Below the pieces are notes generated by a model. The model was not told where the DNA came from, did not search any database, and saw only the letters and a list, made by a program, of their open reading frames with translations. Position numbers and translations under genes: made by a program. Below, piece by piece: positions 6,569 through 34,539 of a stretch of DNA of 64,000 nt. The stretch is from an uncultured delta proteobacterium (GTDB lineage: Bacteria; Myxococcota_A; UBA9160; SZUA-336). The number at the start of each line of letters is the position of its first letter. Position 1 is the first letter of the stretch. Location of the stretch: assembly GCA_963704165.1 (NCBI GenBank), contig CAVPHD010000003.1, positions 128,001 through 192,000 on the forward strand, written 5' to 3'.

Positions 6569-10071
<3,503 letters not shown>

Positions 10072-24482: not shown

Positions 24483-25703
24483 ATGTACCGCGCTAAGCTG
24501 CGTCTCGTGAATCCACAGCTCACGTCGGCACAGGCGCGAACGCTCTTCCTCGACGCGCAGGGCCTGCTCGACGACCCCGCGCGACCCGCGACCTCTCGGG
24601 CCCTCGAGCGCCTGGTCGCAAAGCTCGGCTTCGTGCAGATCGACTCGATCTCGCGCGTCGAACGCGCACACCACCTGACTCTCGGCGCGCGACTCGACGC
24701 CTATCGCCCGGAGATGCTCGATCGCCTGACGTTCGAGAAGCGCGCGCTCTTCGAGCACTGGACGCACGATGCTTCACTGATTCCGATCGCCCTCTTCCCG
24801 CACTGGAAGCCACGCTTCACCCACTATGCGGAGCGCGCGCGCCGTTCCCGCTGGTACGTCGCGCGACTCGGCGCGGATGCCACGCGCACGATCGAGCGCG
24901 TGCACCGGCGCGTCGCGCGCGAGGGGCCCCTGCGCGCGCGCGACTTCGAACGCGGCCCGGCCCGGCCCGCGACGGGCTGGTGGGACTGGACGCCCGAGAA
25001 GACCGCCCTCGAGTTCCTCTGGTGGTGCGGCCGACTCGCGATTGCCGACCGCGAGAACTTCCACAAGGTCTACGATCTGACCGAGCGCGTACTGCCCGAG
25101 GCGCAGCGCGCGCCCGAGCCGAGCCACGCGGTGCACGTCGAGTGGGCCTGCCGCTCGGCGCTCGAGCGGCTGGGCGCCGCGACCCCTGCCGAGATCGCCG
25201 CGTTCTGGGCCGCGATCCCGATCGCGCGCGTCGCCGTCTGGTGTCGCGAATCGGCCCTGGCCGGACGCATCGTTCCCGTTTCGATCGAATCCGTCGACGG
25301 AGCGAAGCCCCGCGCCGCGTTCGCGCTGCCCGATTGGGAGCGACGCCTGCGCCGTGCACCCACCGTCCCTGAACGCATCCGGCTGCTCTCACCCTTCGAT
25401 CCCGTGCTCCGCGATCGAAAACGCGTCTCTCGTCTGTTCGGATTCGACTACCGATTCGAGGCGTTCGTGCCGGCGACGAAACGCCGCCACGGCTACTACG
25501 TGCTGCCGATTCTCGAGGGTGAGCGCCTGATCGGCCGCCTCGATCCCCGCCACGACCGCGAGCGCGGGGTGTTGGTGATCGAGAAGCTCTACTGGGAGCC
25601 CGACGTCCGCGCGACCCGCGCGCGACGCCGCGCCCTCGACGACGCGCTCGCGGAACTCGCGACGCGGATCGGCGCGCGCGACGTCGAGCTGCGCGCTCGC
25701 TAG
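24483..25703 (+). CDS. ycaQ: YcaQ/AlkZ-family (HTH_42) interstrand-crosslink DNA glycosylase
   Basis: GFVQIDSI (QxD catalytic motif), FEHWTHDAS, LLSPFDP, KRRHGYYVLPILEGERLIGRLD. Confidence 0.88.
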   Translation: MYRAKLRLVNPQLTSAQARTLFLDAQGLLDDPARPATSRALERLVAKLGFVQIDSISRVERAHHLTLGARLDAYRPEMLDRLTFEKRALFEHWTHDASLIPIALFPHWKPRFTHYAERARRSRWYVARLGADATRTIERVHRRVAREGPLRARDFERGPARPATGWWDWTPEKTALEFLWWCGRLAIADRENFHKVYDLTERVLPEAQRAPEPSHAVHVEWACRSALERLGAATPAEIAAFWAAIPIARVAVWCRESALAGRIVPVSIESVDGAKPRAAFALPDWERRLRRAPTVPERIRLLSPFDPVLRDRKRVSRLFGFDYRFEAFVPATKRRHGYYVLPILEGERLIGRLDPRHDRERGVLVIEKLYWEPDVRATRARRRALDDALAELATRIGARDVELRAR

Positions 25704-28942: not shown

Positions 28943-29054
28943 CGCAGGCAGGGTATCCGCGCGGGACCGCTTCGCGCTATCCTGCCGGCACCCCTGGCGA
29001 ACGGTCCCGTGAGCGGGGTGAGGTGCGCGTGGAATTCGGGACCGTTCCGCTCCA

Positions 29055-32000
29055 ATGACGATCGCGGTCGTCGCAGAGAAGCCCTCGGTGGCGCGCGACA
29101 TCGCGCGCGTCCTCGGTGCGAGCTCGCGTGGCGACGGCTGTCTGCGCGGGAACGGCTACGTCGTCACCTGGGCGATCGGCCACCTGGCGTCGCTCGCGCA
29201 GCCTCACGAGATCCGCCCGGAATGGCGCGCGTGGCGGCAGACGCTCCTGCCGATGATCCCCGAGCGCTGGCCGCTCGTCGTCTACGAGAAGACGCGCAGC
29301 CAGTTCGAGATCGTCTCGCGGATCCTGAACGACCGCGACGTCGAACGCGTGATCTGCGCGACCGACGCGGGGCGCGAGGGCGAGCTGATCTTCCGCTACA
29401 TCTGGGAAGCCGCGGGACTCGAGGGTGCGGGCGCGCGAAAGCCGGTCGAACGGCTCTGGATCTCGTCGCTCACGCCCGACGCGATCCGCGCCGGGCTCGC
29501 GAATCTGCGCAGCCAGACGGAGGTCGATGGCCTGGCCGATGCGGCCCGCGGACGCAGCCGGGCGGATTGGCTGGTCGGCATGAATCTTTCGCGCGCCTAC
29601 ACGCTCTCGCGTCGCTCGTCCTCGCGCAACGACTTGCTCTCGGTGGGACGCGTGCAGACACCGACGCTGGCGATCCTGGTCGAGCGCGAGCTCGCGATTC
29701 GGTCCTTCGTTCCCGAGGACTACTTCGAGGTGCAGGCCGACTTCCGCGCGAAGGGTGCGCCGGAGGATGCACCGAGCCTACCGCGGAACCTGGTTCCGGC
29801 CGACCGCGAAGGGCGCGGACGGCGAAGCGCAGGAACTCGCGCGTCGGCTTCCGGCCGACGGTGAAGACGGCGGAGAAGATCGTCGCTCGCGCACGCACCG
29901 GGCAGGCGTCGATCGAATCGGTCGAGGCGCAAACGCGCCGACTCGCGCCGCCGCAGCTCTACGACCTGACGGAGCTTCAGCGCGCGGCGAACCGCATCTT
30001 CGGCTGGAGCGCGACGCGCACGCTCGAGGTCGCCCAGAGCCTGTACGAGTCGAAGAAGGTGCTCTCCTATCCGCGCACGGACAGCCGCCACCTCTCGACG
30101 TCGGTCGCGGCCACGCTGCCGAAGATCGTGCGCGCGATCTCGGGGCCGTATCTCGAGAAGCTCGCGGCCGGAACCGGCGAGCGCCCGCTCGGCGCGCGGT
30201 TCGTCGACGACGCGAAGGTCAGCGACCACCACGCGATCATCCCGACCGGGCATGCCCCCGCGAAGGCCGGGCTCTCCGCGGACGAGGCGCGTCTCTTCGA
30301 CCTGGTCGCACGACGTCTGCTCGCGGCCTGGCACGCGGATCACGTCTACGCGACGACGACCGTCGTCACCGCGATCGCGAACGTGACGCCCGAGCCGATC
30401 ACCGACCGCTATCGCAGCCAGGGCAGCTCGGTCGTCGCGATCGGCTGGCGCGCGCTCGAAGGCGCGGCGACCGGCGACGGCGAGGCGCTGCTGCCGTCGG
30501 GCCTCGCGCGTGGACAGGCCCAGGACGTCGTCGACGCCCGGGCCGAGCGCAAGCGCACGCGCCCGCCGCGGCGCCTGACGGAAGCGACGCTGCTCACGGC
30601 CATGGAGACGGCAGGACGGACGCTCGAGGACCGCGAGCTCTCCGAGGCCATGCGCGAGACGGGGCTCGGAACGCCGGCGACGCGCGCCTCGATCATCGAG
30701 ACGCTGCTCGAGCGCAAGTACATCACGCGGGACGGGAAGGCGCTCGCGGCGACGGACAAGGGCGTGGAGCTGATCGAGATCGTCCATCCCGACGTGAAGA
30801 GCCCGCTGATGACCGGCCAGTGGGAGGCGCGGCTCGCGCAGATCCAGCGCGGCTCCGGAGAGCTCGAGAGCTTCATGCGCGACATCGAGACGTACGTCTG
30901 CGACGTCGTGAAGCGCGTCCGAACGGAGCCGCCGAGCGCGCACGCCGCTCCACCACGCGACGACGCTCCGCCGCTGCCCTTCGCCTTCGAGCGCGAACGC
31001 GCCGAGCCGCAAGCGCCGACCCCGCCCGGCGAGCTTCTCGGTCTCTTGCGGCGCCGATTCCGATTCGAGAGCTTCCGCCCGTTCCAGGAAGAGGTCTGCC
31101 GCTCGCTGACGAGCGGCTCGGATGCGCTTCTCGTGATGCCGACCGGAGCGGGCAAGTCGCTCTGCTATCAGCTTCCCGGTCTCGCGCGCGCCGGTACGAC
31201 GCTCGTCGTTTCGCCGCTGATCGCGCTGATGGACGACCAGGTCGCGAAGCTCCAGGCGCAAGGCCTTCGCGCGGAGCGCATCCACTCCGGGCCGCGCGCG
31301 CGCGGAATCCCAGGCCGTGCTCCGCGCGTATCTGGACGGGAGGCTCGACTACCTGTTCATCGCCCCCGAGCGGCTCGCCGTGCCGGGCTTTCCCGAGAAG
31401 CTCGCGCAGCGAACGCCGGCGCTGGTCGCGGTCGACGAGGCGCACTGCATCTCGCAGTGGGGGCACGACTTCCGGCCCGAGTACCGCATGCTGCGCGAAC
31501 GCCTGCCGGCGCTCCGCCCCGCGCCGATCATCGCGCTGACCGCGACGGCGACTCCGATGGTCCAGCGCGACATCGTCGCGCAGCTCGGCATCGACAAGGC
31601 GAAGCGCTTCATCCACGGCTTCCGGCGCACGAACATCGCGATCGAGCTGGTCGAGGCCAAGCCGTCGGCGCGCGACACCGCGACCGAGCGCCTGCTTGCG
31701 CGCGCCCGGGCGCCGTCCCGCCATCGTCTACGCCCCGACGCGCAAGAAGGCCGAAGCGCTCGCGTCCCGGCTCGACCGATCGTTCCGGGCGGCCGCGTAT
31801 CACGCCGGCATGCCGCCGCGCGATCGCGACGAGGTGCAGCGGGCCTTCATGGACGGCGCGCTGGAGGTGATCGTCGCGACGATCGCGTTCGGCATGGGCA
31901 TCGACAAAGCCGACGTCCGCACCGTCGTGCACACGGCCCTGCCGAGCAGCGTCGAGGGCTACTACCAGGAGATCGGACGCGCGGGACGCGACGGCGCCCT

Positions 32001-33052
32001 CTCGCGCGCGGTGCTCTTCCACGGCTACGTCGATCTCCGCACGCACGAGTACTTCCTCGCGCGCGACTATCCCGACATCGAGGTGCTCGAGCGGGTCTAC
32101 CGGACGCTCGGCGCGAAGCCCGAGCCGCGCGCCGAGCTTCAGCGCGACCTGCGCATGGATCCCGACGAGCTCGAGCGCGTGCTCGAGAAGCTCTGGATCC
32201 ACGGCGGCGCGATCGTCGATCCCGACGAGAACTCGGCCCGCGGACACGACCGTTGGCGCGAGCCGTACCAGGCGCAGCTCCGGCACAAGAAGACGCAGCT
32301 CGACCAGATCCGCCGCTACGCCGAGAGCAACGCCTGCCGCATGCTGCAGCTCGTCCGGCACTTCGGCGACGAGGCGGACTCGGGCGCGGAGTGCGGAATC
32401 TGCGACATCTGCGACGCCGGCAGCGCCGAGGCGCTCGGATTCGTCGCGCTCGACGCTGCGCAGGAATCCGCGCTGGAGCGGATCGTCGGCGCGCTTCGCG
32501 CCCGCAACGGCCAACCCTCCGGAAAGCTACACCGCGAGGTGTTCGGTGACGCGCTCGAACGGCGCGAGTTCGGGCGGCTCGTCTCGGGGCTCGTGCGCGC
32601 CGGCCTCGCGGTCGAGGAGAGCGAATCGTTCGAGCGCGATCTCGAGACGATCGCGTTCTCGCGGCTTCGCCTGACGCGGTCCGGGCTCGAAGCCGACGCC
32701 GCGGCGCTCGCCTCCGTGCGGATCGAGCGCGAGAGCGAGCCGGAGCGTGCACCGCGCAAGCCGCGCGCGCGGGCAGGACCGCACACGCACACGCGCACGC
32801 ACGAAGGTCCCGGCTGCGGACGCCGATCCGAGCATCGACGGCGCGCTGCTCGGCGCGCTGATGCGCTGGCGCGGCGCCGAAGCGAAGCGTCGGCGCATTC
32901 CCGCGTTCCGCGTCATGACCAACGCCGCGCTCCAGGGCATCGCCTCGTCCCGGCCGAGCGACGAACGCGAGCTGCTCGCGGTGAAGGGCATCGGCCCCGC
33001 GCTCGCAGCCAAGTACGGTCCCGCCCTGCTCGACCTCGTGCGAGGCCGGTAG
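29055..33052 (+). CDS. topB-recQ: DNA topoisomerase III - RecQ helicase - HRDC fusion protein (~1330 aa; about 5 frameshifts)
   Basis: TOPRIM VVAEKPSVA, ATDAGREGELIF, SVGRVQTPTL, active site SYPRTDS, DHHAIIPT, GLGTPATRA; then in the same frame FRPFQEE and MPTGAGKSLCYQLP; later DEAHCISQWGHDFRPEY, ATIAFGMGIDK, QEIGRAGRDG, CR...CGICDIC, and HRDC LMRWR..EAKRRRIPAFRV...GIGP. Confidence 0.9.
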
Positions 33053-34017: not shown

Positions 34018-34539
34018 CTAGAAGTCGCGCTCCATCACCGTGCGGCGTCCCTCGCGCATCGCGCTCTCGATCGCGTCGTCGCAGAGCCCGCGCAGCTTGT
34101 CGGAGAGGACCTCCATGACGGCGTCGGAGGTGCTCATGCCCGAGCGCTCGCGCACGTAGGATTTCAGCTTCGAGACCACGACCAGGACCTCGCGCTTCGG
34201 CTTGCTCGTGGCCGGTCGCGACGAGGGCACGATCCGGCGCTGCGGCTCGCGCACCGGCGCGGCTCCGGGCGCCGATGCCGGTGCCGACGCGCCCGCGGCC
34301 TCCTCCGCCTGCTCGCGGAGCCAGGCCTCGCGCGTCGGCGCGCGCCGCTCCTCGGCCCAGGCTTCGCGGTGGTTCATCAGCGGCAGATGGACGTCCCAAC
34401 ACGACGTCGAGCAGAACACGAGTCCCGTGCGCTTGCGGTTGCAGGTCGAGACGTTGCACACCCAGAAGGTCCTCGTGAAGCCGATCTCCTTCTTGCAACT
34501 GCTGCAGCGCCGCCAGAAGCTCGTACCCGCCTCACTCAT
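34018..34539 (-). CDS. Bacterial histone with N-terminal ZZ-type zinc finger (ZZ histone)
   Basis: C12/C15/C28/C33/C43/C47/H51/H57 zinc ligands; Ala/Pro/Ser-rich linker; C-terminal [57 protein letters not shown] closely resembles the Bdellovibrio histone Bd0055 and contains the RxTxxxxD signature; RBS GGAGG. Confidence 0.88.

Follow-up and report, generated by a model that had tools for sequence, protein, structure and literature searches.

Does the stretch of DNA examined here, 64,000 nucleotides from an uncultured delta proteobacterium (the window), encode a type IA topoisomerase III (Topo III) and a RecQ helicase on one polypeptide chain, and what would such a protein do? The initial annotation had proposed for this locus a single-polypeptide Topo III-RecQ fusion that is not a product of indels. 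Both proposals are borne out: the junction between the two halves lies in one stop-free frame that is conserved among intact relatives, the breaks of the reading frame fall outside this junction, and the relatives carry intact single open reading frames. Since such intact relatives exist, a chance origin of the fusion is excluded, and the fusion gene in the window is real.

Three-frame translation and tblastn matched the stop-free frame at 29864-31303 to residues 265-747 of an intact relative of 1335 amino acids (P0001) with 86% identity. This frame contains the catalytic SYPRT motif, whose Tyr codon is at 30068-30070, the GLGTPATR motif, the linker RTEPPSAHAAPPRDDAPPLPF..., and RecQ motifs 0 (31058), I (PTGAGKS, 31139) and Ia. 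Pfam placed both Topoisom_bac (E 7.7e-81) and DEAD (E 9.1e-12) within it, and the neighbouring frames hold, in order, Toprim, the remainder of DEAD, Helicase_C, RecQ_Zn_bind and HRDC. A stop followed by a restart at 30920-31050, named beforehand as the observation that would refute a fusion, was looked for, and none is present in the window sequence. The topoisomerase core had also been described as complete in this frame. Because the Toprim domain and the early topoisomerase part sit in other frames, the core counts as split by two breaks, and what stands of that description is the unbroken junction. Read through all five +1 breaks of the gene, the predicted product has 1330 amino acids.

Each of these five breaks is a net gain of one base. 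Comparison with three same-genus genes placed four of them at 29778, 29868, 31289 and 31696; the fifth lies within the low-complexity basic linker before the HRDC domain, at about 32750-32810, its exact base not being placed. One explanation would be that the family is functional and that the copy in this strain has recently died through real frameshifts. The number of breaks favours it and weighs against pure sequencing error, as five in 4.0 kb compare with 0.72 expected at the background rate (Poisson p 0.0009). That background comprises 30 frame switches in 148 kb, the fusion gene counted in, and such switches occur in 21 of the 118 genes compared, some three times, including the second topB; ruvC of the host is likewise split, and errors cluster in other genes of the assembly too. 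Against a dead copy, all five breaks are +1 and in line with the insertion bias of the assembly. Isolated 1-bp differences, counted as extra to missing bases in the host assembly, amount to 28:8, 10:3 and 11:1 relative to three relatives whose compared loci overlap in part, versus 2:3 and 0:0 between the relatives themselves. Moreover, three of the four placed insertions are copies of the adjacent base, the gene has no internal stop, one of 289 invariant residues is altered, as against 1 and 0 in the two intact relatives compared, and the ratio of amino-acid to silent codon changes, 0.62-0.65, compares with 0.57-0.81 among intact relatives. We regard a dead copy as very doubtful; as judged from the sequence, the breaks match the assembly-wide excess of single-base insertions and give no sign of decay.

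The topoisomerase half carries the traits of the TopB family, namely the type IA catalytic residues, TopB profile scores and a decatenation-loop segment. In the full-length relatives E8 is present in 109 of 110 and D104, Y333 and R335 in all 110, and the window has these residues as well. An intact relative (P0006) scored above both TopB cut-offs (TIGR01056, 568 > 515.75; NF005829, 660 > 597) and below that of TopA (TIGR01051, 188 < 456). Alignment of the half with E. coli Topo III (E 5e-95) covers the segment at 30605-30661, which we take to be the decatenation loop from the coordinates of the E. coli TopB loop (501-520). It measures 19 residues in all 106 full-length relatives in which its pattern was matched. 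The decatenation loop is described as essential for decatenation and as the counterpart of the Rmi1 loop (PMC4191389, PMC13244152).

The helicase half likewise has the traits of its family. Motif I GKS, DEAH, the aromatic loop, motif VI and the four zinc-binding Cys residues are each present in 110 of 110 full-length relatives, in which the RecQ motifs from 0 to VI are near-invariant throughout, the helicase core aligns with E. coli RecQ (E 1e-89), an intact relative exceeds the RecQ family cut-off (TIGR00614, 392 > 219.8), and the fold compares with RecQ cores at Z 30-40. An AlphaFold model of this half alone, from the relative L090 (pLDDT 90.9, pTM 0.80), predicts the order motor core, inserted winged helix, zinc site, RQC-type winged helix, basic linker and HRDC. 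The inserted element of about 60 residues is reflected in the spacing from motif VI to the first Cys, which is 104-118 in 45 fusions versus 48-53 in 11 canonical RecQs. An intact relative missed the profile cut-off for canonical recQ (TIGR01389, an equivalog) with 479 < 640.2, the best stretch ending at profile position 349. Because canonical RecQs of the host class themselves score under this cut-off, the distinction from canonical RecQ rests on the insert and on the tree.

In a tree of 93 helicase cores, 54 fusions and three stand-alone fusion-type RecQs are split from the other 36 with support 99, and in a quick tree of 61 cores a branch with support 100 sets the 32 fusions apart; these trees, like that of the topoisomerase cores below, are rooted at midpoints only and built on a chosen subset of loci. 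By its insert and its tree position, the fused helicase is a RecQ subfamily of its own. Inserts at this place are not confined to the fusion; other stand-alone RecQ-like proteins of these phyla carry them as well. When the whole model and not the insert alone was compared with known structures, human RECQL4 (PDB 5LST) aligned over 433 residues of model positions 1-448 (root-mean-square deviation 3.8, Z 32.7), whereas WRN and BLM aligned with about 385-390 residues of a comparable stretch. The winged-helix unit of RECQL4, R4ZBD, is located between the same bridging helices (PMC5490261).

Between the halves, the linker varies from 27 to 124 amino acids among 110 relatives, with 20% Pro and 18% Ala, and from 28 to 208 amino acids by an offset measure applied to 88 locus proteins. 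A model of both modules of a relative (pLDDT 88.3, pTM 0.57) predicts this linker to be disordered (pLDDT <50) and fits two independently folded modules, the underlying 57-row alignment being weak on docking. The features of the locus are collected in Table 1.

Table 1. Features of the fusion gene and its upstream region in the window, with the observations on which each is placed.
Feature	Position	Strand	Detail
Candidate -10 element TATCCT	28978..28983	+	TAnnnT; T, A and final T invariant in 10 same-genus upstream regions; putative role
Genus-level leader motif CACCCCTGGCG-nn-CGGTCCCGT...G(A/G)GGTG	28989..29025	+	Invariant core in same-genus alignment
Topo III-RecQ fusion gene	29055..33052	+	Start ATG 29055, stop TAG 33050-33052; intact relatives 1293-1458 amino acids
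Toprim domain (AEKP Glu; DAGREGE)	29067..29465	+	PF01751, E 4.2e-11
Topo III core with catalytic Tyr 30068-30070	29526..30910	+	PF01131; +1 breaks at 29778, 29868
Decatenation-loop segment, 19 amino acids	30605..30661	+	Aligned with E. coli TopB 501-520 (20 amino acids)
Pro/Ala-rich inter-module linker, 41 residues	30911..31033	+	Reads in frame with Topo III and RecQ
RecQ helicase core: motifs 0, I, Ia, II (DEAH at 31434), aromatic loop, III-VI	31034..32055	+	+1 breaks at 31289, 31696
Inserted small winged helix, between two helices ahead of the zinc site	32074..32268	+	AlphaFold model of L090, residues 350-404
RecQ zinc-binding module	32269..32412	+	PF16124; Cys codons 32335, 32392, 32401, 32410
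RQC-type winged helix with beta-wing	32452..32730	+	Model residues 476-566; aligns with bacterial RecQ cores to about 568
Basic disordered linker with fifth +1 break	32731..32842	+	pLDDT <50 at model residues 586-608
HRDC domain	32843..33040	+	PF00570, E 1e-18

The fusion belongs to a widely distributed family. All 120 matches listed for a query spanning the junction have both topoisomerase and helicase domains, and 110 of them measure 1293-1458 amino acids. With a full-length copy from Archangium as query, 2963 of the 7999 scored clusters matched at E 1e-250 or better; the 120 best listed have the motifs of both halves, and most of the 2963 clusters are probably fusions. Myxococcus xanthus does not figure among these 120. 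The hosts that carry a name belong to Myxococcota and Acidobacteriota, with a few from Gammaproteobacteria, for example Contendobacter, and the closest named relatives of the window gene are metagenome-assembled genomes of Myxococcota/Deltaproteobacteria. Within the genus the fusion is found in 11 of 11 genomes, nine times as one open reading frame, once cut by contig ends and once frameshifted. Where the proteins are named in databases, the name is nearly always 'DNA topoisomerase 3' or 'III', under which the fusion is hidden.

At 66 of the 71 loci with motifs of both halves the junction lies in a single stop-free frame. A natural split form was considered for the other five, which shift frame in or near the linker, and rejected for four of them, which are without a convincing stop-start and look like indel errors, one of these shifts lying inside the first helicase helix. 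At the locus L009 (about 7100-7200) the Topo III frame ends in a TGA that overlaps the ATG of the RecQ frame (TGATG), which is ambiguous between a split form and an indel error. We also rejected a mobile origin: of 724 plasmid matches none spans 80% of the query for the junction, and the genomes of the genus are collinear at the locus. Descent from genes of the host was rejected too, since neither the host class's long Topo III nor the host's stand-alone RecQ is sister to the fusion.

A FastTree analysis of 153 topoisomerase cores puts 47 of the 48 fusions into one group with support 99, P0140 lying outside. This group also takes in forms with a winged helix only and short-tailed forms. Topo IIIs without the helicase core that have only the winged helix or HRDC tail of the fusion are P0134, P0139, P0150, P0155, P0202 and P0129, some of which may be truncated or mis-assembled. 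The stand-alone RecQs of the fusion subfamily (L202, L203 and L205 in genomes G239, G227 and G197) come from Acidobacteriota, two of them with tandem HRDC domains, and no topoisomerase was found beside them in the fetched flanks. The simplest reading of the trees is one old fusion followed by repeated loss of either half.

What else the host encodes bears on the role of the fusion. In addition to the fusion, the host genome (G000, completeness 84%) encodes another, long Topo III, a stand-alone RecQ of the insert type and two GyrA/ParC-family genes, as well as ruvC, recG, lexA and recA. Besides the fusion, the one type IA enzyme found in the host is this long Topo III (G000:C1:83041-85780, L082), which has a Cys-rich tail and ends in a Lys/Ala-rich stretch; over 41 relatives, long Topo III and TopA look mutually exclusive. 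None of 25 genomes of the host family has a TopA that reaches the cut-off. Each of the 16 carriers of the fusion among the 41 relatives has a further type IA enzyme, which is TopA in G040 and a long Topo III in the other 15, so the fusion is an additional topoisomerase.

Canonical RecQ, scored as present when its profile was covered to position 470 or beyond, occurs in 1 of the 16 carriers versus 23 of the 25 non-carriers. Counted by genus this becomes 1 of 5 carrier versus 22 of 24 non-carrier genera (Fisher p 0.003), and in 121 genomes of the phylum, a sample overlapping with the 41 relatives, 1 of 17 versus 34 of 104 (p 0.02). The fusion likely stands in for canonical RecQ where it is present. 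What counts against this is that kin are not independent in these statistics, that in 101 Acidobacteriota the difference is not significant (0 of 5 carriers versus 28 of 96 over the cut-off, p 0.32), and that carrier counts in the wide samples are lower bounds, the Acidobacteriota carriers having been found through long open frames only.

From the observed architecture, conservation and distribution of the fusion we infer its activity, coupling and substrates as follows. A Topo III tethered by a variable linker to a RecQ helicase probably works as an ATP-driven strand-passage machine. The helicase would unwind linked duplex DNA and supply single strands to the tethered Topo III, which would cut and pass them; likely substrates would be late replication intermediates, converging forks, hemicatenanes and recombination joints. 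In related stand-alone Topo IIIs, Cys-rich tails stand at the place that the helicase occupies in the fusion; the tether would thus substitute for the SSB- or RMI-type bridging on which separate proteins rely. The fusion would take over the job of canonical RecQ, and another type IA enzyme would handle routine supercoiling. Separate E. coli RecQ and Topo III act in this way in vitro (PMC13760219, PMC4191389), where they link duplex circles into catenanes in a reaction that requires the RecQ ATPase (PMC13760219). More tentatively, we propose a single-chain bacterial dissolvasome: an old family with thousands of members that might unlink converging forks and dissolve double Holliday junctions without RMI or SSB bridging, might have displaced canonical RecQ, and might represent a second independent helicase-type IA fusion beside reverse gyrase.

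Several observations weigh against such a joint machine. Beyond the genus the distribution is patchy, with 4 carriers among 29 more distant relatives, and of the three stand-alone fusion-type RecQs two nest well inside the fusion clade, the third being less resolved. Conversely, five Topo III representatives retain only the winged helix or HRDC, and in Telmatobacter bradus (L080, NZ_CP184532.1, 6600-7830) an intact Topo III is accompanied by a degenerate, truncated first RecQ domain with altered motifs I and II, a helicase loss in progress. The host retains RuvC, RecG and a second GyrA/ParC-family gene. The cooperation of RecQ and Topo III, which the initial annotation took as established, holds for E. 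coli in vitro and is disputed in vivo (PMC13244152). According to that work of 2026, no physical interaction of the two proteins was observed in E. coli, earlier genetic evidence was not substantiated, and RecG, not RecQ, acts with Topo III in its assays.

These points lend some weight to a different explanation, which we consider rather unlikely, that two working enzymes are only co-expressed and co-localised on one chain, with RecQ performing RecQ/RecJ-type end processing and Topo III using the RecQ winged helix and HRDC as a DNA-binding tail. It would accommodate the long, unconserved linker, the repeated loss of either half together with the existence of Topo IIIs with the winged helix only, and the lack of an in vivo link between RecQ and Topo III in E. 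coli reported in PMC13244152; the helicase half alone would also suffice to displace canonical RecQ. However, the fusion is kept over several phyla with both active sites nearly invariant, and because carriers already own another type IA enzyme, retention of the attached Topo III suggests a joint task. A further reading is an enzyme that clears R-loops and negative supercoils where a lineage has no Topo I: its helicase would remove RNA or invading strands, and its Topo III would relax the region so exposed. Topo I normally prevents R-loops (PMC13244152), and the 0 of 25 count for TopA in the host family agrees with this role, but the fusion is also missing from most relatives without TopA, which depend on the long Topo III, and the carrier G040 has TopA; we judge such a role improbable. 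A tightly coupled enzyme that, like reverse gyrase, uses ATP to change supercoiling in one direction is more improbable still. In its favour, no helicase-type IA fusion other than reverse gyrase is described, and separate RecQ and Topo III yield negatively supercoiled plasmid in vitro (both PMC7245102), whereas the domain order of the present fusion is opposite, an intact relative falls far below the reverse gyrase cut-off (TIGR01054, 103 versus 471.7), the linker is variable and disordered, and the RecQ accessory domains are complete. Strand passage by a tethered, jointly acting pair remains the reading that we prefer.

The region upstream of the gene was also inspected. A sigma-70 scan, which requires a -35 match as well, gave no match there. 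Of 23 metagenome matches to the leader motif 18 lie upstream of the N-terminus of the fusion gene, and the host genome has one exact copy. The motif would be either an operator or a leader RNA. A structured leader RNA is not supported, because the leader has no Rfam match at E up to 5 and none of 11 predicted pairs shows covariation. SOS control was considered and rejected: the host has lexA, but the upstream regions of lexA and the fusion gene have no word of 10 or more bases in common. Likewise, no shared LexA-like box was seen by eye in five lexA and five recA upstream regions. The sequence CTGAAC...TCAG upstream of the Archangium copy (L073) resembles what we take to be the LexA box of Myxococcus; nothing alike was seen in the window. 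In many Acidobacteriota copies, such as the Bryobacterales loci L022, L028, L029, L032, L037 and L038, a TAAACT box stands about 7 bases ahead of a TTG codon and by eye looks like the mark of a leaderless transcript.

Two neighbouring genes were noted. Downstream, at 34018-34539 (+), a Cys-rich open reading frame of 173 amino acids without Pfam match stays beside the fusion in the genus; its C-terminus presumably resembles a bacterial histone fold behind a zinc finger, and a phmmer search against the PDB gave no match at E 0.01. About 3.3 kb upstream, at 24483-25703 (+), lies an AlkZ-like DNA glycosylase gene (PF06224, E 6.6e-70) that is collinear in the closest relatives only.

A literature search, which covered few subscription journals, found no paper on a Topo III-RecQ fusion, so that mention in a table or review is possible. 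Bennett and Wang reportedly engineered a yeast Top3-Sgs1 fusion in 2001. In the main text of a survey of type IA C-terminal domains (PMC9369019), the terms RecQ, helicase, fusion, fused and HRDC do not occur. The parts and the proposed chemistry are thus known, and the single-chain form is not described in the searchable literature. PMC7245102 states that hyperthermophiles have 'uniquely' fused helicase and type IA units; the present fusion conflicts with this restriction to reverse gyrase. Because the cooperation of bacterial RecQ and Topo III is shown in vitro and disputed in vivo, a natural fusion makes the partnership testable. Its retention across several phyla with both active sites conserved constitutes natural evidence for this partnership in some bacteria. 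As a one-gene enzyme of fixed stoichiometry, it lends itself to structural and single-molecule study of the hand-off from helicase to topoisomerase, the reaction behind BLM-TOP3A.

The halves of the fusion belong to the same two enzyme families as E. coli RecQ and TopB, which act with SSB; there they are separate proteins, while in the fusion they are covalently joined. E. coli RecQ is canonical, in contrast to the fused helicase with its inserted winged helix and a score below the canonical recQ cut-off. In BLM-TOP3A-RMI1/2 and Sgs1-Top3-Rmi1, a RecQ with zinc module, winged helix and HRDC is likewise physically tied to Topo III. These dissolvasomes are multi-protein assemblies, whereas the fusion is one bacterial chain whose double-Holliday-junction dissolution is putative. 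An RMI1-type OB-fold was not found as a Pfam domain in the window pieces or in the 120 relatives listed, the genome not having been searched for a separate one, and the bacterial decatenation loop may stand in for it; bacterial Topo III contains as a part of itself the loop that RMI1 contributes (PMC4191389). Human RECQL4 has a winged-helix unit, R4ZBD, that follows the second RecA domain between two bridging helices, a position which the insert of the fusion appears to match, but there R4ZBD replaces the RQC, whereas the fusion keeps the four-Cys zinc site, the RQC winged helix and HRDC in addition to its insert. Reverse gyrase, finally, also joins a Superfamily 2 helicase module to a type IA topoisomerase in one chain. 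Its helicase is N-terminal and its topoisomerase C-terminal, while the fusion has the reversed order, a Topo III-type core and a variable, disordered tether.

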